From: Candidatus Wolfebacteria bacterium RIFOXYB1_FULL_54_12
GTDB lineage: Bacteria; Patescibacteriota; Minisyncoccia; UBA6257; UBA9933
DNA: 56,948 bases
Assembly (NCBI GenBank): GCA_001793895.1
Contig: MGIT01000004.1
Span: 8,517 to 65,464 of the forward strand
Reading direction: 5' to 3'
The position numbers and the translations under genes are program-made. The notes below the pieces were generated by a model. That model saw only the letters and a list, made by a program, of their open reading frames with translations. It was not told where the DNA came from and made no database searches. How positions within the stretch are numbered: position 1 is the stretch's first letter; each line of letters starts with the position of its first letter. Shown piece by piece: positions 3,814 to 12,860 of the stretch.

Positions 3814-4812
3814 TTACAGCGTCGCTTGCCGATGTTTACGTGCGGCAAAATCATCTACCAGCTCCTGCACGACAACCACAAACGGAATGGCGAGAATTAC
3901 GCCGATAAGCCCATACAATTGATACCCCGCCACAATAGATAGTGCCACGATGACCGGATGGATGCCCGTTGTCTTGCGCATCACAAGCGGAAGCACGATA
4001 TGCGCTTCAAGCTGATGAATGACAAAAAACAGTACCAGCGTTGCTATGCCCAGTGTCATAGATTGGGAGATCGCGATCAGAAACGCCACTGCCCCAGCCA
4101 CAATAGGCCCGACGAACGGAATGATCTCCAATGCGCCCGCCAAGAGTGCGAGTACCAACGCGTAGTTTACGCCAAGCAGTTTTAATCCGATGAACGATGT
4201 GATTGCCACGATCAAACTTAAAAATATCTGCCCTTCGAGCCACTTGCCTATTTTCTTTCGCGCACGATGCATGACCCCAATTGCATACCCTTCATATTCG
4301 ATCGGCAACACGGCACGCAAAAACCCTTCAATGCCGTCGCGATACCATGCGAGATAAATAGATATAACCACAACCGTGACGAACATGACCATATTCTCGA
4401 ACAACTGCGGTATGAACTTGCCGATGGAAAATCCACCCGCGGTCAATGAATCACCCAGCCCGCTCAAGCCTCCGCCGATATTCGGTATGCCCACCAAGCC
4501 GCCCAACGCAGCTTCGAGCATGCCGACATTGTCCGCAAGGTCCTTCATTTCAATGAGCACAATCGGTACGACCGTGTAGATCAACAGGGCGACGATCGAA
4601 AATACAGAAGCCATTATGAACAAAATACCCATGATGCGCGGGATCTTTTGACGCTCAAGCCAATTAAGCGGAGCGTCCAGCGCGGAAGAAATGACGATCG
4701 CCAAAAACAACACGGCAACCACCTCCCGCATGAAATATGCCATACTGACCGCCGTGACCATGATCACAATACGCCACAACGAGTTCCATGTTATTTCCAA
4801 GTTCCGCTCCAT
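3814..4812 (-). CDS. AI-2E (PerM/YhhT) family transporter
   Basis: 332 aa polytopic protein with C-terminal LLAGALEIIPFVGPIVAGAVAFLIA-type motif. Confidence 0.8.
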   Translation of the reverse strand: MERNLEITWNSLWRIVIMVTAVSMAYFMREVVAVLFLAIVISSALDAPLNWLERQKIPRIMGILFIMASVFSIVALLIYTVVPIVLIEMKDLADNVGMLEAALGGLVGIPNIGGGLSGLGDSLTAGGFSIGKFIPQLFENMVMFVTVVVISIYLAWYRDGIEGFLRAVLPIEYEGYAIGVMHRARKKIGKWLEGQIFLSLIVAITSFIGLKLLGVNYALVLALLAGALEIIPFVGPIVAGAVAFLIAISQSMTLGIATLVLFFVIHQLEAHIVLPLVMRKTTGIHPVIVALSIVAGYQLYGLIGVILAIPFVVVVQELVDDFAARKHRQATL

Positions 4813-5202: not shown

Positions 5203-5406
5203 TTACTTTGCCGTTGCTTCAGCTTCTTTCTTTTTTACGGTGCGGATGCACTGGGTGCATGCGTTAACACGCAGACCTTCCATAACGGTCAGCTTCTGAA
5301 GATTCGGATATCGTCTTGTTCGGACGGTCGGGTTGTAGTTGCCGCGGAGCTTTTTGCGCGCGCCGTGCATCATGGAACCTTTTCCGCAAATTTCACACTG
5401 TCTCAT
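5203..5406 (-). CDS. rpmB: 50S ribosomal protein L28
   Basis: MRQCEICGKGSMMHGARKKLRGNYNPTVRTRRYPNLQ, 67 aa. Confidence 0.9.
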   Translation of the reverse strand: MRQCEICGKGSMMHGARKKLRGNYNPTVRTRRYPNLQKLTVMEGLRVNACTQCIRTVKKKEAEATAK

Positions 5407-5666
5407 AGTTTTCGTATAGTACCTTAGATTTTTCCACTTGTAAAGCCCCTCGCGGGGCCTTGCAAGTGAATATCGGCATGTGATATCCCGACTGTAAGTC
5501 AGGTGGGTGAGTTCAACCGAAGTCCTAAGACCTCGATACTATTACTCTCCCAAATCAACATTGATAACTCGAGAATCATTGCCGATACTCTATTATCAGT
5601 ATAGCAATTACGCCACAATTATCAAGCCTACATGTTGCATGTTACATGTTTCATGCTACATGCAAC

Positions 5667-6350: not shown

Positions 6351-7748
6351 TTATTTTTTCTTATCTATCTTAATTTGCAATTCCTTCAGCTGTTTTTCCG
6401 TGAACTCCGACGGGGTGTCGACCATCAGATCGCGACCATCGCCGGTCTTTGGGAATGCGATGACCTCGCGGATGTTTGGCTCGTTCTGCAATATCATCAC
6501 AATGCGATCGATGCCCGGGGCGATGCCTCCATGGGGCGGAGTGCCCAGCTTGAACGCATCGAGCATGTGCCCGTAATCGGTTTGGATCTTTTCGTCTGAA
6601 TAGCCCATGATCTCCAGCACCTTATGCAACGCTTCAGGGCGATGATTGCGAATGCTTCCTCCGCCGATCTCGTATCCGTTCAACACGATGTCGTATTGGT
6701 CGGCCAATATCTCGGCGATGTTTTCCTTGTTCATCAGCGAATCCATGTGCTCCGGTTGCGGAGCGGAAAATGGATTGTGCGTAAAGGTCCATTCGCCGGT
6801 CTCTTCGTCTTTTTCAAAGAACGGAAAGTCAATGACCCAGCAGAATGCGAGCAGGTCCGGATCGTTCTTATCTTCACGAATGTCGGGCCTGTCGTTGCCG
6901 TACTTTTCCATCGATTCCTTATAGGTAATGCGCGGGAACGGTTTTTGCTGGATGCGCTTGTTCGGATAGTGCGTTTCAACAAGCTTGATGAGCATGTCTT
7001 CGATGATGTCCATTACTTCCCCGCTTTTGGCAAAGCTCATTTCCATATCGAGCTGGGTGAACTCCGGCTGGCGATCGCCGCGGGTGTCCTCATCGCGGAA
7101 GCAACGAGCTATTTGAAAGTATCGTTCCAACCCTGCGACCATCAGCAACTGTTTGTACTGTTGCGGTGATTGCGGCAATGCATAGCACTTGCCCGGATAG
7201 ATGCGCGACGGCACCAAGTAATCGCGGGAGCCCTCCGGTGTGGCCTTGCCGAGCGCCGGGGTTTCCACTTCGATAAAGTCGAGCTCGGACAAATAATTTC
7301 TGAAAAAGTTCACCACTTTGGCACGCATCTTCAAGTTTTTTTCCATGCGCTCGCGCCGCAGATCGAGCGGGCGATATTTCATGCGGGCCTCTTCGCTGAT
7401 CTCCCGGCCATCGGTATCGATCGGGATCGGCAGCTCTTCCGCTTTGTTCAATATTTCCAATCCTTCGGCAAGTATTTCATATGCCCCGAATTCCTGATCG
7501 GCGTTGACCATGTTGTCGGGTCGCTTGTTCACTTTGCCCGTCAAACGCACCACCCATTCGGCTCGCAATTCGCTTGCCGCCTCGTGCACTTCCTGCGGTT
7601 TCGGTAAAAAAACAACCTGCACCAAGCCACTCCTGTCTTTCAGGTCGATGAATATTAGCTTTCCGTGGTCGCGACGGTTTCGCACCCACCCTTCAAGCAC
7701 GACAGACTCGCCCTCTTTGGCGATCATTTCTCTAATAAGTGTCCGCAT
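6351..7748 (-). CDS. aspS: aspartyl-tRNA synthetase, bacterial-type core lacking the GAD insertion (465 aa)
   Basis: Motifs LPQSPQQYKQLLMVAG, FRDEDTRGDRQPEFTQLDMEMSF, GGGSIRNH, PPHGGIAPGIDR. The GNDRPDIR segment joins directly to FCWVIDFPFFE. Confidence 0.9.
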   Translation of the reverse strand: MRTLIREMIAKEGESVVLEGWVRNRRDHGKLIFIDLKDRSGLVQVVFLPKPQEVHEAASELRAEWVVRLTGKVNKRPDNMVNADQEFGAYEILAEGLEILNKAEELPIPIDTDGREISEEARMKYRPLDLRRERMEKNLKMRAKVVNFFRNYLSELDFIEVETPALGKATPEGSRDYLVPSRIYPGKCYALPQSPQQYKQLLMVAGLERYFQIARCFRDEDTRGDRQPEFTQLDMEMSFAKSGEVMDIIEDMLIKLVETHYPNKRIQQKPFPRITYKESMEKYGNDRPDIREDKNDPDLLAFCWVIDFPFFEKDEETGEWTFTHNPFSAPQPEHMDSLMNKENIAEILADQYDIVLNGYEIGGGSIRNHRPEALHKVLEIMGYSDEKIQTDYGHMLDAFKLGTPPHGGIAPGIDRIVMILQNEPNIREVIAFPKTGDGRDLMVDTPSEFTEKQLKELQIKIDKKK

Positions 7749-7786
7749 AGTGGTACAACATTAGCATTTTTGCACCTCCTTCGCAA

Positions 7787-7820
7787 CAAAAAAAATCGCA
7801 CTCACCTTTCGATGAGTGCG
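7787..7820 (-). terminator. Rho-independent terminator ending the small-ORF transcription unit
   Basis: Minus strand reads CGCACTCA-tcgaaagg-TGAGTGCG followed by T8. Confidence 0.7.
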
Positions 7821-7825
7821 GTTGC

Positions 7826-7900
7826 TACGCTTCGTCAATTTTTTAAACAGTGTGGTTTTCTTCCACCTTTAGCGTCGGTTATGCGTTCTCAAGCCCGACG
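7826..7900 (-). repeat. conserved two-hairpin element (A-B half module), copy 1
   Basis: Minus strand: CGTCGG-N16-CCGACG, GTGGAAGAAAACCAC, AAAAAATTGACGAAGCG. Confidence 0.8.
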
Positions 7901-7907
7901 AGTACCG

Positions 7908-8054
7908 CTACCCGTTGTAATCAACGATTAGCGGACATGTTACCATCGCCACAACCCCCACCAGGATTACAGCTGGGATCCAATGCCCGAACCCGAGTAT
8001 TGATATCCCCATACAAACCGCCATGGTAGCGGCCCACTGATATATAATTTTCAT
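7908..8054 (-). CDS. 48-aa hydrophobic peptide (two predicted TM segments)
   Basis: Own translation: MKIIYQWAATMAVCMGISILGFGHWIPAVILVGVVAMVTCPLIVDYNG. GAGGAGG lies 4 nt upstream of the ATG. It is below the ORF-track length cutoff. Confidence 0.55.
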   Translation of the reverse strand: MKIIYQWAATMAVCMGISILGFGHWIPAVILVGVVAMVTCPLIVDYNG

Positions 8055-8097
8055 ACTGCCTCCTCGCCCGTTTACCGGGCAATGTTTTTTAAATGTG

Positions 8098-8250
8098 CAC
8101 TTCCTTCGAATTCCCGTTCTGTGAACCGAAACTCGATGAGAAGGGGCAAGCGATAAATCTATCGCTTGCCCATACGCTTCGTCAATTTTTTAGACAGTGT
8201 GGTTTTCTTCCACGATTAGCGTCGGTTATGCGTGCTCAAGCCCGACGGGG
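8098..8250 (-). repeat. conserved multi-hairpin element (full A-B-C-D module), copy 2
   Basis: Same A and B hairpins as copy 1, plus GGGCAAGCG-loop-CGCTTGCCC and CGGTTC-acag-GAACGGG hairpins. Confidence 0.8.
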
Positions 8251-8268
8251 CAACCACTATCACAAGGG

Positions 8269-8550
8269 TCAGATCCTTCTTACCCTTGAGACATAGCACA
8301 GCTCTACTCTTCTTTCTCCGCAGAGGCACTCCCCTGTGTCGAACACGACACGCCCTTCCTCCGTGAGCTTTCTAAACTTGCCGGTGCATGTTCTGCACCG
8401 TAGCCTCCCCGGCTCTTCCGGGTCCCTCTCTACCTCGATTTTCTCCCCCGGCAGGAGGTTTAGCTTACGAACCTCCTCCGCCATCTTTATAGACTTCTGG
8501 CGATAGGGCCCATCAGAAAACAAACTCAAGAACTTTTGAAATCCTTTCAT
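8269..8550 (-). CDS. hypothetical 93-aa protein with possible zinc-ribbon cysteines
   Basis: CRTC...C.C pattern (RLRCRTCTGKF...GECLCGE). Its 5' leader is identical to that of the 48-aa ORF. Confidence 0.55.
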   Translation of the reverse strand: MKGFQKFLSLFSDGPYRQKSIKMAEEVRKLNLLPGEKIEVERDPEEPGRLRCRTCTGKFRKLTEEGRVVFDTGECLCGERRVELCYVSRVRRI

Positions 8551-8639
8551 ACTGCCTCCTCGCCCGTTTACCGGGCAATGTTTTTGGAAAGATCAAATGT
8601 CAGGTTGGTTGTTTTTTACACTTCCATCCTTACACCCTT

Positions 8640-8668
8640 ACAATACCAGTATTCACAAAATGTGTCAA
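8640..8668 (-). promoter_or_regulatory. sigma70-like promoter for the 93-aa/48-aa ORF unit
   Basis: Minus strand TTGACA-17 nt-TATTGT. The downstream GTAAGGATGGAAG is shared with the promoter at 11721..11749. Confidence 0.45.
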
Positions 8669-8809
8669 CTATTCCGTCAAACTCTTAGTTTACTTTTCTT
8701 TCCTTTCTTATTTTTCCGCATAAACATTGACAAAATCCTTGCTTTTGGTAGTATATAAAAAACGGTCCTTTCGTCGACATATTCATATAATCACACTTGT
8801 ATCGCCGCC

Positions 8810-9538
8810 ATGCTTACAAAAAACCTGCAAAAGATCGGGCTCAATGAAAAGGAAGCAAAGGTCTATCTCGCTTCCCTTGAATTAGGGGAAGCCAACATCC
8901 AGCGTATTGCCAAAAAAGCGGGCATCAAACGCACCACCGCCTACGATATTCTTGCCTCCCTTAAGGAAAAGGGGCTTATTAGCACGGTCAAAAAAGATAA
9001 GCGCTTCTATTATTATGCCGAAAACCCTTCATCATTGATGGCCGATCTGGAGGAAAAGCAGGAGGCACTGAAGAAGATCATGCCCGAGCTTCTTTCGTTC
9101 GATAACCTCTTGGACCGCAAGCCAAAGATCCGCTATTTCGAAGGAGCGCAGGGACTGAAAGAAGTCTATATGGATACACTAAGCTATCCTGACCGGGAAA
9201 TGCTTTCGTGGGTAGCCGAAGAAGCGTTTTATGATTTTGATGTTGATTTTCTTGAATCCCGTTATCACCCCACACGGATCAAGAAAAAAATCTGGACCCG
9301 CGAGATCGCATCTGATGACCCTGCAACACGCGCCTATCAGGCGAAAGACGCAAGCAGTCTGCGCAAAACAAAGCTGCTTCCTTCGAAGCCGTTTCCTTTG
9401 GATGTCGGCATCAGCATCTATGGCGACAACAAAGTAGGGATCGTTTCCTTCAAAGAGGGGCTTGGCCTTATCATCGAAAGCGACAAGATCCACAACACGC
9501 TCAAAAGCATGTTCGAGTTCTTTTGGGAAAAGCTTTGA
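8810..9538 (+). CDS. TrmB-family transcriptional regulator
   Basis: N-terminal LNEKEAKVYLASLELGEANIQRIAKKAGIKRTTAYDILASLKEKGLI winged-HTH, 242 aa. Confidence 0.8.
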   Translation: MLTKNLQKIGLNEKEAKVYLASLELGEANIQRIAKKAGIKRTTAYDILASLKEKGLISTVKKDKRFYYYAENPSSLMADLEEKQEALKKIMPELLSFDNLLDRKPKIRYFEGAQGLKEVYMDTLSYPDREMLSWVAEEAFYDFDVDFLESRYHPTRIKKKIWTREIASDDPATRAYQAKDASSLRKTKLLPSKPFPLDVGISIYGDNKVGIVSFKEGLGLIIESDKIHNTLKSMFEFFWEKL

Positions 9539-9586
9539 CCCCTCTGAATTACAAAACCACCCTTGTCTTGCCGTAAACCTGACTAT

Positions 9587-9703
9587 TGTCATTCCGAGCC
9601 CATTCGTCCGCCAGCTGGCGGATCAGGGTAAACCGTAGTCGAGGAATCCGCAGTGCTTTTGCTACAGATCCCTCGGCTCCGTTTCACTGCACTCGGGATG
9701 ACA
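9587..9703. repeat. hairpin-repeat cluster
   Basis: tgtcattccgag...ccgccagctggcgg...ctcgggatgaca. Confidence 0.8.
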
Positions 9704-9735
9704 TGCCGAGTTTCGTAATTTAAAGTTGATAAGAA

Positions 9736-9772
9736 TAAAAAAAAGGCGGAAAACTTTTTAGGTTTTTCCGCC
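9736..9772 (-). terminator. Rho-independent terminator after the receiver-like operon
   Basis: GGCGGAAAAAC-loop-GTTTTCCGCC followed by T8 on the minus strand. Confidence 0.7.
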
Positions 9773-9933
9773 TCGTACTACTCTGCCTTTCTTGGTGGCT
9801 CCTCTGACCATCTGTCGCTTTTATTGCGTCCTTTTAGGACCTTTATTACACAACTCCGACGATCTCCATTGCCTTCCCCCGGCGCGGTTGCGTTTACCCG
9901 GGGCATACTTTCCAAGAGTGCAGACCTGGACCG

Positions 9934-10614
9934 TTATTCTTCCTGTTCGCCACTGGTGAGGCGATCCAGGATATCTTTCCAGTCCTTTCCCTTCTCGGCG
10001 TAGTCCACACCGGTAGCGTGGCAGGTGTAGCAATCGTAGGCGCTATCGTCTGCACGCCGCTGCTTACCCGTGCCGCCACATTCCCGGCAAGGTCCTTCGG
10101 TACCCGTTATACCAACCCTTTTGATATGATTGGTAAACAGCGCCTTGGCGCCTGCAACCGGGAACACTCCACGGTCCATGCGATCGAGCATGGCGCTCGC
10201 CGGATGACTGTGGTGGTCCATGTCGGTAACAACCGCCACGAACTTCGCGCCTTCCAGTGCCGCATCAATGGCGAGCGCCCAGCCGATCGGCATTTCCGTG
10301 CCGACATACTGCAGGCCATTGCCCCCTTGGGTTTTCCTACCCGCGGGCATCAGCAAATCAGAGAGCACCGCATCCCAGTAGGGAAGCTTGCACTCTTCCA
10401 TTGCCTTCGCCCACACTTCGCCGCACCAGCCATAGCCTGCCGCTTCTGCCTCTGCCTTGAGTCGCAGAAGTTTTTCCCTGTCGCACGGCTTTTCCCGCAC
10501 GAGCTCTACCGCTTCATCGTGGCTTCCCACTACGGTAAGCTCATGCTCTTCGCCGAGCGTCTGGTAGGCTGCCTTCCGGTGCGCGGCATTGTCATCAATA
10601 ACGAGAATCTTCAT
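9934..10614 (-). CDS. receiver (REC)-like domain protein with C-terminal DnaJ-type CxxCxGxG zinc-finger motifs
   Basis: MKILVIDDN start, DAVLSDLLMPAG acceptor-like segment, C-terminal CRECGGTGK and CYTCHATG. There is an insertion of about 40 aa before the acceptor Asp. Confidence 0.5.
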   Translation of the reverse strand: MKILVIDDNAAHRKAAYQTLGEEHELTVVGSHDEAVELVREKPCDREKLLRLKAEAEAAGYGWCGEVWAKAMEECKLPYWDAVLSDLLMPAGRKTQGGNGLQYVGTEMPIGWALAIDAALEGAKFVAVVTDMDHHSHPASAMLDRMDRGVFPVAGAKALFTNHIKRVGITGTEGPCRECGGTGKQRRADDSAYDCYTCHATGVDYAEKGKDWKDILDRLTSGEQEE

Positions 10615-10634
10615 GGCCTTTCTCCTGCTGTGGT

Positions 10635-10994
10635 TTACGCCAGCCCTTTGCCGGCGATGTGATTCGTAAATCTTCTCATCTCTTCGCCATCTTCCCTGAC
10701 AAAGGAAATAGTGAATACTGAAAGCAGTCCTTTGAAGCGCTCGTTCTTGCTAAGCGCTTCCGCACTCTTTTCAATATTATTCCCCTCACCTACTCCGATG
10801 GCGAACAATATTACCCTTTTCCCGGCCAGCAGGAGGTCAAGCGCTTCATTGACATTGGTGCAAAGCACCTCGTCTGCAGAAGCCATATCCTCAACAACCC
10901 TGCCCAGCGCGCAGGCAATCAGCACGCCGAGAGTATTTTTTATCGGACCGTCCTCGGTGTTTATATACACCTTTTTCCTTTTTAAGCCGTCCAT
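10635..10994 (-). CDS. hypothetical 119-aa protein (possible degenerate receiver fold)
   Basis: ATG at 10994 is preceded by GGAGGTGAAGG. The listed longer ORF (to 11138) would read through the conserved RNA-like element. Confidence 0.5.
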   Translation of the reverse strand: MDGLKRKKVYINTEDGPIKNTLGVLIACALGRVVEDMASADEVLCTNVNEALDLLLAGKRVILFAIGVGEGNNIEKSAEALSKNERFKGLLSVFTISFVREDGEEMRRFTNHIAGKGLA

Positions 10995-11065
10995 TCTTCC
11001 TTCACCTCCATTAAATATCCCGCAATACGGGCTGCGCACGATCGCGCCAATTTTTAAACGAACCG

Positions 11066-11240
11066 CTCCCTTCGAATTCCCGTTCTGTGAACCGAAACTC
11101 GATAAGGAGGGCAAGTGAATTCTCCAAATAGAACTCACTTGCCCGACCCTCCGTCGAGGGCGCCACGCTTCATCAATTTTTTACTGTGGTTGTGGTTTTA
11201 TTCCACGATTATCGTCGGTTGTGCGCGCGCAAGCCCGACG
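11066..11240 (-). repeat. conserved multi-hairpin element (A-B-C-D module), copy 3
   Basis: CGTCGG-N16-CCGACG, GTGGAATAAAACCAC, AAAAAATTGATG, GGGCAAGTG-loop-CACTTGCCC, CGGTTC-acag-GAACGGG. Confidence 0.8.
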
Positions 11241-11354
11241 GTGAAGTTTTTGAGAAAAACTTCACCAAAAACTCTGTTACATGGGTGGCATAGCCTCTCC
11301 TTGTTTGTTTTTGCCCTTTCGGACCAGTTCCTTCAAAACCATGTAAAACCTCTA

Positions 11355-11535
11355 CGGGTCCCCGTTCTTACGAACCGGAATCCGATAGAAGGGGCAAGTG
11401 ATGATATCACCGCTTGCCCACCTTTCCACCGTCGCATCATGCGCTGGCGGAAAGGGTAGTAACGCCATCAATTTTTTAGATAGGGTGGTTTTCTTCCACC
11501 TTTAGCGTCGGCTGCGTTACTGTTGCCCGACGGGG
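11355..11535 (-). repeat. conserved multi-hairpin element (A-B-C-D module), copy 4
   Basis: CGTCGG-N15-CCGACG, GTGGAAGAAAACCAC, AAAAAATTGATG, GGGCAAGCG-loop-CACTTGCCC, CGGTTC-gtaa-GAACGGG. Confidence 0.8.
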
Positions 11536-11720
11536 ACCCTACTCAAAATCTTGGGCAAAATCCCGATTTCTATCCCCTCTCGTGGCCATGTTGGGTCGTG
11601 GCCAGCGAATAAGGGGTCAACCTCCTTTTTCCCGATATTTTATCTGTCGGCCTCGGGTGGCTGTTATTTTTCCAAGGTGCTTCGCAAGGATGTTTTTCTT
11701 TCCTTCATCCTTACGCCCCC

Positions 11721-11749
11721 ACAATAACTTTTTTATGTCAACCAGTCAA
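11721..11749 (-). promoter_or_regulatory. sigma70-like promoter heading a ~730-nt leader
   Basis: Minus strand TTGACT-17 nt-TATTGT, followed by GTAAGGATGAAGG as at 8640. Confidence 0.4.
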
Positions 11750-11999
11750 TAATTTTGCCAAATTATGCTTTTCGCTTTATGTATAACCTCATTTATACAG
11801 CATAAATACTACATAAATTGACTGACTTTAGTAAAAATAAAAAATGACCCTTTCGGCGTCATAATGTTCCCATGCGTAATTTTATCGATCTTTCACTTAA
11901 AATAGCGCCTGTATGCACAGCCCATTACCAAGCGCTATCCTCTGCCTGCCCCCCACTTTTATGGCTACTTCCCTACTATTCCGTCATCGCAAGACGGAT

Positions 12000-12028
12000 A
12001 ATGTAACGATGTCAGACATCGTTACATT
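12000..12028. repeat. REP-like palindrome AATGTAACGATGTC-A-GACATCGTTACATT
   Basis: Variant of the palindrome flanking the Y1 transposase at 52.3 kb, with stem positions changed on both arms. Confidence 0.75.
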
Positions 12029-12860
12029 ATTTTTCTTTGTATTGTTTGATTGTTCCGTTTTCGATGATTAACTGGACCATGCCGTCGGTGTCGGTGCGGA
12101 ACAGGCGGGCTTTGGCCTGTTTGATGCGGTTCAGCACTTCAGCGGTCGGGTGGCCGTAGGAGTTCTTGCCCACCTCTATTACGGCAATTTGAGGGCGTAC
12201 GGCACGCAAAAACTCCGCGGTCGTGGAAAATCGCGACCCGTGATGTGGGATCTTTAAAATATCGGCCTTTACATTTTTACTCCCCGCAAGCTGCAGCTCC
12301 GTGTCTTTACCTATGTCGCCCGTGAACAATGTCGAGATTCCTTCGCTCGTGAGTTTTGCCACCAGCGCACCTTCATTCTTGTTTTTCCCGTGCGCGGACA
12401 AAATATCTATCTTGCTTTTTATGTGGGCTATGCCACCCCCTTCGTTCAAACTGATAACCGGAATATTCTTTTCTTTTACTAAACTTGCCAGCTCTTTAAA
12501 ACTTTCCGAGTTGCTTCCTGTGCCGTTATATATAAATGCGCCAACCTCATAGTGCTTCAATACATCAAGCAACCCGCCAAAATGGTCAAGTTCCGCGTGC
12601 GATAGCATAATAATATCAATATAGCGGTCATGCCAAGGCAATACAGCCCCCAATTGTTGCGCGGCCTTGCCGTTTGGCGGGCCGCCATCGATCAACAATT
12701 TTACGCCGCCCGGCATAACCACCATTTCGCTATCGCCTTGCCCTACGGCAAAGAAATACAATTCGAGCCGCTTACCGAAGTCGTCGAATATGATACTACC
12801 CCACGCGAGCATATCGAGGATGACCAGACCGACGATGATTATTTTGAGATTGGTTTTCAT
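12027..12860 (-). CDS. comEC: ComEC/Rec2 C-terminal metallo-beta-lactamase domain protein (separate ORF)
   Basis: N-terminal TM segment, then FFAVGQGDSEMVV, IIMLSHAELDHFGGL and KIPHHGS motifs. Confidence 0.8.
   Translation of the reverse strand: MKTNLKIIIVGLVILDMLAWGSIIFDDFGKRLELYFFAVGQGDSEMVVMPGGVKLLIDGGPPNGKAAQQLGAVLPWHDRYIDIIMLSHAELDHFGGLLDVLKHYEVGAFIYNGTGSNSESFKELASLVKEKNIPVISLNEGGGIAHIKSKIDILSAHGKNKNEGALVAKLTSEGISTLFTGDIGKDTELQLAGSKNVKADILKIPHHGSRFSTTAEFLRAVRPQIAVIEVGKNSYGHPTAEVLNRIKQAKARLFRTDTDGMVQLIIENGTIKQYKEK

Follow-up and report, generated by a model that had tools for sequence, protein, structure and literature searches.

Along the minus strand of a 56,948-nt stretch of the genome of Candidatus Wolfebacteria bacterium RIFOXYB1_FULL_54_12 (contig MGIT01000004.1; the whole stretch analyzed is hereafter referred to as the window), a locus of small genes is threaded by repeated, hairpin-rich sequences that lie between the genes and in the leaders ahead of them. 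The question raised by this locus is what these repeats do there: whether they act as RNA or as DNA, and whether they serve the genes that they separate. We find that they comprise two separate RNA elements, uncatalogued in Rfam 15, which serve Patescibacteria as linkers between small genes. As to function, we give about an even chance to the reading in which the repeats are RNA 'punctuation' linkers of two polycistronic operons, combining transcript processing with nut-like loading of Nus factors. Both operons are part of a Patescibacteria accessory island centered on a TrmB-like regulator and a receiver-like gene.

Two RNA elements repeated within one locus

The first-pass annotation, made from the sequence alone, had described a single module of four hairpins (A to D) on the minus strand, with three complete copies and a half copy; both a repeat finder and direct reading confirm copies at these sites. 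A 75-nt first-half family occurs at 7826-7900, 8173-8247, 11166-11240 and 11459-11533 (copies 1 to 4, with 63-95% identity to the reference copy), and a second half at 8085-8172, 11051-11145 and 11340-11420 (copies 2 to 4), the latter joined by the repeat finder in the pairs 8085-8145/11051-11111 and 8139-8172/11387-11420. The hairpin-B string GTGGAAGAAAACCAC occurs four times at up to one mismatch, always within the locus, and seven times at up to three mismatches against 1.39 expected, a count that no shuffle reaches; a 27-nt string from hairpin D occurs twice against an expectation of 0.00. Full copies fold far more stably than their dinucleotide shuffles (z = -5.1, -6.4 and -5.7). A covariance-model search across the whole window, run without filters, returned the three second-half copies only (E from 1e-14 to 7e-11, the next best match having E 0.4), and no copies of the elements were found outside 7.8-11.6 kb within the 57-kb window. 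The statement that no known RNA family is involved also holds: Rfam 15 yielded only three tRNAs at gathering score across the window, only chance-level matches (E 0.76 or worse) in the 4.6-kb region 7500-12100 searched at E up to 10, and nothing at E up to 0.05 in seven related loci rich in the second-half element.

The unity of the module did not survive, as its two halves occur independently, with different distributions and different kinds of evidence. The second half consists of a GC-rich hairpin C (GGCAAG../..CUUGCC, with variants GAGAAG/CUUCUC, GGCGAG/CUCGCC and GAGGAGC/GCUCCUC), an abutting 5-bp helix, s1, with an all-pyrimidine 5' strand and an all-purine 3' strand, an internal loop of 5'-YAU-3' opposite 5'-UA/AA/UC-3', and a hairpin D of 11-13 bp. 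Hairpin D had been drawn as a simple 6-bp stem. In copy 2 it has 13 bp (8135-8123 with 8119-8107) and rests, across a 3x2 internal loop (CAU 8138-8136, AA 8106-8105), on the further 5-bp helix s1 (8143-8139/8104-8100), with a boxA-like sequence at 8100-8084. The core of this copy (8082-8147, 58.7 bits with covariance model R2) adjoins its hairpin C at 8144-8171. In copy 3 the core (11048-11113, 64.3 bits) comprises s1 CUCCU/GGGAG, a UAU/AA loop, a 13-bp hairpin D and the box GGUUCGUUUAAAAA at 11064-11051, and hairpin C lies at 11109-11144. In copy 4 the core (11327-11396, 50.5 bits, E 7e-11) comprises s1, a UAU/UA loop, hairpin D and a degenerate box, and hairpin C, GGGCAAGCGGUGAUAUCAUCACUUGCCC, lies at 11392-11419. 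All of these stand on the minus strand, the three C hairpins being assigned by the repeat finder, and in copies 3 and 4 the halves are separated by an additional variable hairpin. The lower helix and internal loop of hairpin D were not part of the first description, nor were the pseudoknot, the boxA-like tail and the hammerhead equivalence presented below.

Related loci, labeled L001, L002 and so on, were fetched via the receiver-like gene or the TrmB gene of the island. The nearest genome is that of Candidatus Wolfebacteria RIFOXYD12_FULL_48_21 (locus L005, 96% protein identity); L135, with a TrmB that is 86% identical, and L001 are also syntenic. Sequence-only searches with nhmmer recovered copies of the elements in the closest relatives only, and covariance models were needed. 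Two models, R1 and R2, applied in two search rounds over 94 related sources, produced 44 second-half matches, 43 of which lie on the gene strand, and nine further matches were obtained in loci fetched independently via TrmB. The second half thus found is present in many Patescibacteria loci that have the same TrmB-like and receiver-like genes, and it occurs without the first half in about 15 other lineages. An alternative pairing of the box with the 3' arm of hairpin D was set aside, as by reading it holds in L003 and not generally.

In the model-fitted alignment of the second half, 94.5% of cells are paired (67% in shuffles), 17 of the 18 pairs have changed on both sides, and the covariation score reaches 0.825, compared with 0.327 for shuffles and at most 0.21 for slid registers. 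Because an alignment fitted to a model leans towards that model, the test was repeated with MAFFT and RNAalifold on 26 diverse copies, and the plain MAFFT alignment yielded the same fold, with 12 of 14 pairs compensated. Across the copies 89 G·U pairs stand against 10 A·C mismatches, and the complementary strand therefore pairs much worse than the gene strand (81.6% against 95.2%). Between the window and L005, which share about 96% DNA identity, the s1-D core has no substitution, and changes fall in the hairpin loops and the variable hairpin. The first-pass annotation had staked its proposal on homologous copies with compensatory changes in other genomes, and such copies exist. The second half is a conserved RNA structure.

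The arrangement of the elements follows a regular grammar, most explicit in L135: a hairpin at the ribosome-binding site, an open reading frame (ORF), the first-half element (FH), hairpin C, the s1-D hairpin, the box and the next ribosome-binding site. This order recurs three times in each of two operons, and the last ORF is followed by FH and a terminator. Element positions are orthologous in the window, L005 and L135, with copies at the same four places in the window and L005. In one clade (L064, L054, L056, L048, L042), the unrelated upstream ORFs all terminate within or beside a conserved, Shine-Dalgarno-like GAGGUGAUAAA(C)AUU that has tandem stops, about 5 nt before hairpin C, and the linker seems to supply the stop codons there. 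Searches of IMG/VR viral contigs with exact patterns gave no hits for the first pattern and 21 and 13 hits for two looser ones; as these were not confirmed by the models, they provide no evidence of phage origin, and one 33-bit match, on both strands of L123, is a plain palindrome.

FH is an element of about 85 nt, composed of hairpin A, hairpin B and UAAAAAAUUGAYG, that stands after stop codons. Model R3, built from 10 copies, places the four copies of the window, all on the minus strand, at 11455-11540 (copy 4, 83.7 bits; hairpin A CGUCGG..CCGACG, hairpin B GUGG-AAGAAAA-CCAC, then UAAAAAAUUGAUG), 11160-11248 (copy 3, 89.0 bits), 8169-8255 (copy 2, 101.4 bits, starting 18 nt past the stop codon of a 93-aa ORF) and 7822-7908 (copy 1, 101.9 bits, starting 7 nt past the stop codon of a 48-aa ORF). 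Copy 1 is the half copy, because at the operon end a true intrinsic terminator (7787-7820, minus strand) replaces hairpin C and all that follows it, an arrangement of FH and terminator that is repeated in L001 and L135. Copies number four in the window, four in L005, six in L135 and one each in L001, L054 and L145, and all 17 lie on the gene strand; FH occurs alone, with no second half, in L001, in L054 and as copy 1 of the window. Nine of the 17 directly follow ORF stop codons, in several cases by 6-8 nt, and the rest lie in untranslated leaders. Only in L145 and L054 does FH directly precede a start codon; the L054 copy is unaccompanied in the 5' leader of the receiver-like gene, with about 25 nt between it and the ribosome-binding site downstream.

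Within FH, the 3' part of loop A likely pairs with the tail after UUGACGAA to form a pseudoknot, a proposal that rests on comparison of the copies. The pair extending a conserved CGC/GCG core can be formed in 14 of 14 copies (A-U in six, U-A in four, G·U in three and U·G in one), as opposed to two to five of 14 in shifted registers, and two divergent copies have at this place 8-bp helices that are unrelated to each other: AGUAACGC/GCGUUACU for copy 4 and UGACAAUG/CAUUGUCG for a copy of L135. Several known identities for FH were considered and rejected. The SAM-II riboswitch model (RF01726, gathering score 44 bits) matches only copy 3, at the chance level of 19.6 bits (E 2.9), and the 7-nt AAGAAAA loop of hairpin B has no complement in the tail. 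For a riboswitch in general, FH is mostly not in 5' leaders and overlaps neither terminators nor ribosome-binding sites. As a promoter, AAAAAATTGACG could provide an UP element and a -35 box, but copy 2 alone has a -10-like hexamer. In L003, a different repeat of about 86 nt (..GGAGCCCAAGGGAAGCAGAGCCCUCCGGUUGACACACCGAGACAAAAUGUCGAGAC..) takes the position of FH after three ORF stop codons (4373-4458, 5488-5573 and 6681-6766); nothing in Rfam matches it at E up to 0.1, and it may represent a further uncatalogued motif.

A slot shared with hammerheads and followed by a boxA-like sequence

Type III hammerheads were identified by a core regular expression and/or Rfam in L001, L002, L003/L006 and L021. 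They are preceded by a hairpin and a UCUCUGUC run and followed by GAAACAGAAA-GUUCUUUCAA, and these flanks, a pyrimidine run on one side and the GUUCUUUNAAAA box on the other, are those of the s1-D hairpin; L003 has both kinds of structure. The 58-aa ORF of L135 and the 55-aa ORF of L001, which encode a small membrane protein, are clearly homologous when read side by side, and the former is preceded by the second-half element and the latter by a type III hammerhead. In L001 the same ORF is followed by FH (hairpins A and B and UAAAAAAUUGACG) and then by a terminator. The s1-D hairpin and the hammerhead are interchangeable in one slot. Hammerheads that flank single genes in prophage operons process polycistronic transcripts (PMC3088659), and since the slot of the second half equals the hammerhead slot, the second half probably helps to split long multi-gene messages or to keep them transcribed. 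Context shared with hammerheads is the route by which twister, pistol and hatchet were found, and several other ribozyme-associated motifs failed to cleave when tested (PMC6765202).

The window elements are not hammerheads themselves: neither the core regular expression nor Rfam (RF00008, clan CL00010) matches them, and the same tests detect the hammerheads of the relatives. Further hammerhead-like strings, below the thresholds of both tests, were noted in L003 at about 4685-4740 and 6795-6830 (UAAGCUGAUGAGA..) and in L021 at about 6800-6854 (CUGACGAAGUCGAAAGACAGAAAC, ahead of a perfect GTTCTTTAAAAA box), and could be hammerheads in variant or decayed form. Other long hairpins, with no YAU/UA loop or with a different fold, stand directly upstream of the box in L017 (about 8600-8674) and L054 (about 6975-7049), and the slot therefore accepts several kinds of structure.

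After the second-half element and after hammerheads alike comes the boxA-like sequence GUUCUUUNAAAA and then a ribosome-binding site. The boxes of L041 (GCUCUUUGACAACAA) and L047 (GUUAUUUAACAACAU) resemble the Escherichia coli rrn boxA, and GTTCTTTGAAAACT is presumably the spacer boxA of mycoplasmas. This last sequence is a conserved primer site in the mycoplasma 16S-23S spacer (PMC3019172). The box RUUCYUUNAAAA resembles the BoxA consensus GYTCTTTAANA (PMC5725501), which is gamma-proteobacterial. Among 40 distinct copies, 30% match this consensus with at most one mismatch and 57.5% with at most two, at a fixed offset, compared with 0.15% and 2.8% of shuffles; the boxes of L010 and L086 match it perfectly. 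In L012, L050, L054 and L064 the box is also found behind a 5'-terminal hairpin, shortly after a predicted promoter, and by reading a degenerate box stands likewise after both window promoters. In rrn nut-like sites a hairpin precedes boxA (PMC8632103), and the order is the same here, an s1-D hairpin, a hammerhead or a 5'-terminal hairpin lying a few nt upstream of the box.

Processing and nut-like loading weighed against other readings

As envisaged here, FH would form a pseudoknotted, structured 3' part of the upstream message, a folded 3' untranslated domain. A cut in the transcript would fall in or beside the s1-D hairpin, and its most likely agent is a double-strand-specific RNase, for example RNase III; we favor this kind of enzyme because the element, some two helical turns long with a small loop, lacks a conserved junction like that of known ribozymes. 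In relatives the self-cutting type III hammerhead would do the same job. The upstream message would then end in hairpin C or, after the last gene, in a true terminator, and the downstream message would begin with a stable hairpin. Terminal hairpins protect bacterial mRNAs. The boxA-like sequence would re-load NusB/NusE, and the polymerase would continue through the long, structured and untranslated linkers. Cleavage, the enzyme, Nus-factor binding and the partner or action of FH are the parts of this scheme that we only infer. An RNase III signal is a largely continuous helix of about 20 bp, often with an internal loop that directs single-strand cleavage, and this anatomy is present: s1 of 5 bp, a 3x2 loop and a D helix of 11-13 bp, stacked on a hairpin C of 7-14 bp. 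The suggestion of a processing or cis-regulatory role made in the first-pass annotation is the best-supported one among its options, with the elements acting on the gene strand as RNA.

By analogy, the linkers work like gene-flanking hammerheads, the nut sites of rrn operons and lambda, and the RNase III signals of phage T7, and they are a member of none of these groups. Type III hammerheads flanking single genes (RF00008; PMC3088659) occupy the same slot, and both structures would leave a hairpin at the start of the downstream message; unlike hammerheads, the window elements lack the CUGAUGA...GAAA core and the three-way junction, and self-cleavage is not expected from their anatomy. With nut sites, in which a boxB hairpin accompanies a boxA that is bound by NusB/NusE (PMC8632103, PMC5725501), they share a stable hairpin with a linear boxA-like sequence within about 6-10 nt, an arrangement that is found just after promoters and again inside the operon. 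Unlike nut sites, the linker recurs ahead of nearly all genes in a protein-coding operon, its hairpin far exceeds boxB in length and contains a conserved internal loop of its own, and the window boxes are degenerate; no N-like protein or boxC was identified, and NusB/NusE binding is here putative.

The hairpins that serve as RNase III signals between the early genes of phage T7 are intercistronic, span some two helical turns, contain a small internal loop and are alike within one transcription unit. The window element resembles them in these traits, and cleavage would leave an upstream 3' hairpin. However, its lower helix has only 5 bp, albeit stacked on the separate hairpin C, the pyrimidine/purine sequence of s1 is conserved across phylum-level distances, and the cleaving enzyme is putative. 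For FH, the closest likeness is to the DUF3800-I, drum, skipping-rope and FuFi-1 motifs (PMC5737381), which likewise have highly conserved loops and a pseudoknot, rarely stand in 5' leaders and, as FH does in copy 1, L001 and L135, precede terminators at operon ends. None of those Rfam models matches FH, however, and FH also occurs inside operons, on the gene strand and right after stop codons, its internal copies being followed by a non-terminator hairpin. A DUF3800-V RNA (RF02964, 56.5 bits) lies at 9737-9835 on the minus strand of L001, beside a DUF3800 gene and 4 kb from the island. Repeats of the ToxI type from type III toxin-antitoxin systems (about 36 nt) were also rejected, as the window repeats are 85-175 nt long and 290-3000 nt apart and PADLOC finds no toxin among five island proteins.

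Several observations weigh against the combination of processing and Nus-factor loading. The three boxes of the window have 2, 3 and 4 mismatches to the gamma-proteobacterial boxA consensus, the one in copy 3 having 2, and no rRNA operon of this lineage, with which boxA could be compared, is among the fetched loci. The main covariation figures come from the alignment that leans towards its model. Both s1 (YCUCU/RGAGR) and the internal loop are conserved in sequence beyond the usual need of RNase III, which indicates a specific protein or a tertiary contact. Stems A and B of FH never vary among copies and thus provide no evidence for or against their pairing. The pseudoknot of FH has only 4-6 bp outside the two divergent copies, and shuffling the tail of each copy gives significance only for copy 4, which is why we call it likely and not proven; the register-anchored count is the more informative of the two tests. 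Finally, all related loci were fetched through receiver-like or TrmB genes, and the association with this type of island is therefore partly a sampling effect.

A different role for the same RNA, in which a specific protein or small molecule bound by the elements controls the translation or stability of the neighboring genes without cleavage, FH acting as an aptamer or protein operator and s1-D as a boxB-like partner of an island-encoded factor, seems to us unlikely without being far-fetched. The loops and stems of FH are invariant across lineages whose receiver-like proteins are 41% identical, FH also has its likely pseudoknot, and in L054 FH lies some 25 nt from the ribosome-binding site of the receiver-like gene. 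In addition, s1 has a Shine-Dalgarno-like 3' strand (GGAGA) held by its CUCUC strand, and BoxA near start codons can repress translation (PMC5725501). Yet FH is found mostly downstream of ORFs and not in 5' leaders, and as it overlaps neither a terminator nor a ribosome-binding site, no expression platform is visible. The downstream genes, moreover, are unrelated to one another, and binding alone hardly explains a self-cleaving hammerhead in the same slot. That hammerhead lends some appeal to the idea that hairpin C with s1-loop-D is itself a new class of self-cleaving ribozyme replacing it, which we regard as improbable. Slot and flanks equal those of type III hammerheads, including before an orthologous gene, twister, pistol and hatchet set a precedent for discovery by hammerhead context (PMC6765202), the A and U of the internal loop are conserved in 30-31 of 34 copies and the opposite U and A in 24-27 of 34, and no known ribozyme family in Rfam matches. 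Against this, conservation among unpaired nucleotides is limited to about five, the second half revealed no multi-helix junction or pseudoknot, variants in the same slot, such as that of L017, lack the internal loop, and several other ribozyme-associated motifs remained uncleaved in tests (PMC6765202). A version in which the same structure is a very small self-cleaving or protein-assisted class that replaces the hammerhead in Patescibacteria, gated by FH as a ligand- or protein-binding pseudoknot, is likewise a long shot. To our knowledge, self-cleaving classes have roughly ten or more conserved positions together with a junction or pseudoknot.

Action at the DNA level, with the repeats serving either in attC-like recombination that shuffles cassettes of small genes or as operators for the TrmB-like regulator, was among the options first proposed and is now quite improbable. 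The layout is indeed cassette-like: as in integrons, arrays of small, unrelated same-strand ORFs are separated by linkers conserved in structure more than in sequence, the linker of one clade supplies a conserved GAGGUGAUAA with tandem stop codons at ORF ends, the FH stems are invariant inverted repeats, and the TrmB gene is adjacent in 61 of 100 loci. The pairing, however, is RNA-like and specific to the gene strand, as the excess of G·U over A·C combinations indicates, the FH pseudoknot includes G·U pairs, no FH copy departs from the gene strand, and copies keep their four places between the window and L005 and also stand in leaders without ORFs. No recombinase gene is present in the gene tables of L001, L002, L003, L135 and L140-L145, nor an integrase in those of nine loci, and reading of the aligned copies, with no attC model run, revealed no RYYYAAC/GTTRRRY (R''/R') core sites. 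A selfish or neutral intergenic repeat of the MITE, REP or BOX type, with no function in the operon, is the least credible of the readings, close to being dismissed. Its modular make-up with half copies recalls BOX and BIME, and copies within one locus are very similar; dispersed repeats nevertheless do not fit copies confined to 7.8-11.6 kb of the window, fixed in strand and position relative to stop codons and ribosome-binding sites, orthologously placed in L005 and L135 and shaped by compensatory evolution across distant lineages.

The operons and the accessory island

Two minus-strand operons make up the locus in the window. A consensus scan recovered the promoter (11749-11721) and the terminator (7820-7797, with a T run) of the first-pass annotation and a further sigma-70-like promoter at 8668-8640. 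Operon 1 runs from the promoter at 11749 through an untranslated stretch of about 730 nt with copies 4 and 3 to a 119-aa gene (start 10994, downstream of copy 3) and a gene for a 226-aa receiver-like protein (9934-10614), and ends, as seen by reading only, in a terminator-like hairpin and U run near 9780-9745. Operon 2 runs from the promoter at 8668 through the 93-aa ORF, copy 2, the 48-aa membrane ORF and half copy 1 to the terminator. The stretch of operon 1 had been read as a leader with two tandem copies; the copies are there, but it is better described as a string of linker cassettes around a conserved 4-codon mini-ORF. In L135 a real 83-aa ORF lies between linkers of the same kind, upstream of the conserved mini-ORF, and the window has nothing but the mini-ORF between the linkers of copies 4 and 3. 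This mini-ORF (AUG CCA CCC AUG UAA, MPPM*, 11291-11277) was found by reading together with its ribosome-binding site GGAGAGG (11277-11300 overall, minus strand) and is followed by a 12-bp hairpin at 11266-11240. It is also present in L005 and in L135, where its stop is UGA, and may encode a leader peptide with Pro-Pro stalling for the 119-aa and receiver-like genes.

Both promoters lead directly into the hairpin and box described above. In operon 1 (11663-11749, minus strand), TTGACT-17-TATTGT is followed by a 5'-terminal hairpin (11714-11706/11692-11684) and the box-like GCACCUUGGAAAAAUAAC at 11680-11663; in operon 2 (8580-8668, minus strand), TTGACA-17-TATTGT is followed by a 5' hairpin (8630-8624/8608-8602) and the box GAUCUUUCCAAAAAC at 8594-8580. 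The promoters come from the consensus scan and the rest from reading. A sequence TATTGT-GGGGYGUAAGGAUGRRG is common to both (11706-11726 and 8624-8645, minus strand), to L001 (about 5290-5330) and to L135 (about 8960-9000), as a conserved transcript start that forms the 5'-terminal hairpin; alternatively, it could be the operator of the TrmB-like regulator. The start regions of the 93-aa ORF (8545-8585) and the 48-aa ORF (8049-8089), each on the minus strand with the hairpin GCCCG-GUAAA-CGGGC, GAGGAGG and AUG, are identical over 41 nt by the repeat finder, an identity that suggests either gene conversion or a need for this structure at the start region. In L001 and L135, too, ORFs are preceded by similar hairpins at the ribosome-binding site.

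The TrmB-family winged-helix regulator gene (8810-9538, plus strand; Pfam PF01978, E 8e-18) stands between the operons, convergent with the receiver-like one. In the fetched loci it adjoins the receiver-like gene in the proportion given above, mostly divergently. The 226-aa protein, the marker of this island type, has homologs from Patescibacteria; its residues D7, D8, D81, D86, H134, H135 and H137 are invariant, and it has a C-terminal CxxC..CxxC zinc ribbon. Its AlphaFold model (mean pLDDT 93) finds as best PDB matches weak similarities to CheY-like receiver domains (E about 0.01), and on this predicted structure 'receiver-like' is the most that can be said. Searches of five island proteins against PHROGs and PADLOC gave helix-turn-helix matches only, apart from one weak zinc-ribbon match, that of the 226-aa protein to Q-like antiterminators in PHROGs (E 0.007); PADLOC gave no defense-system or toxin match except to the helix-turn-helix domain of the TrmB-like protein. 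The roughly 340 nt that follow the receiver-like gene (9592-9930, minus strand) contain GC-rich hairpins and no convincing ORF. At the other end of the island, a 23-bp near-perfect palindrome, AAGACGGATAATGTAACGATGTC / GACATCGTTACATTATTTTTCTT (11991-12037), separates the end of an MBL-fold (ComEC-like) gene from the island promoter; it recurs in L001 (2918-2945) and is probably the terminator of the upstream gene.

We found no description of these linkers in Rfam 15 or in the literature searched, and in the latter no paper linking hammerheads or structured RNAs with Patescibacteria. The biological role of gene-flanking bacterial hammerheads and other self-cleaving ribozymes is still open (PMC6765202), and the main interest of the locus is that a hammerhead and a hairpin that does not look like a ribozyme swap in one slot, upstream of a boxA-like sequence, before orthologous genes. 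This swap provides a testable hypothesis, namely that the ribozymes cut nascent RNA just before Nus-factor loading and translation initiation; if it is true, each cistron would get its own protected ends. Two uncatalogued, covarying RNA motifs are thereby added to Patescibacteria, a phylum for which we found almost no descriptions of regulatory RNA, and the findings suggest that control by boxA and Nus factors may extend to accessory protein-coding operons in this phylum.

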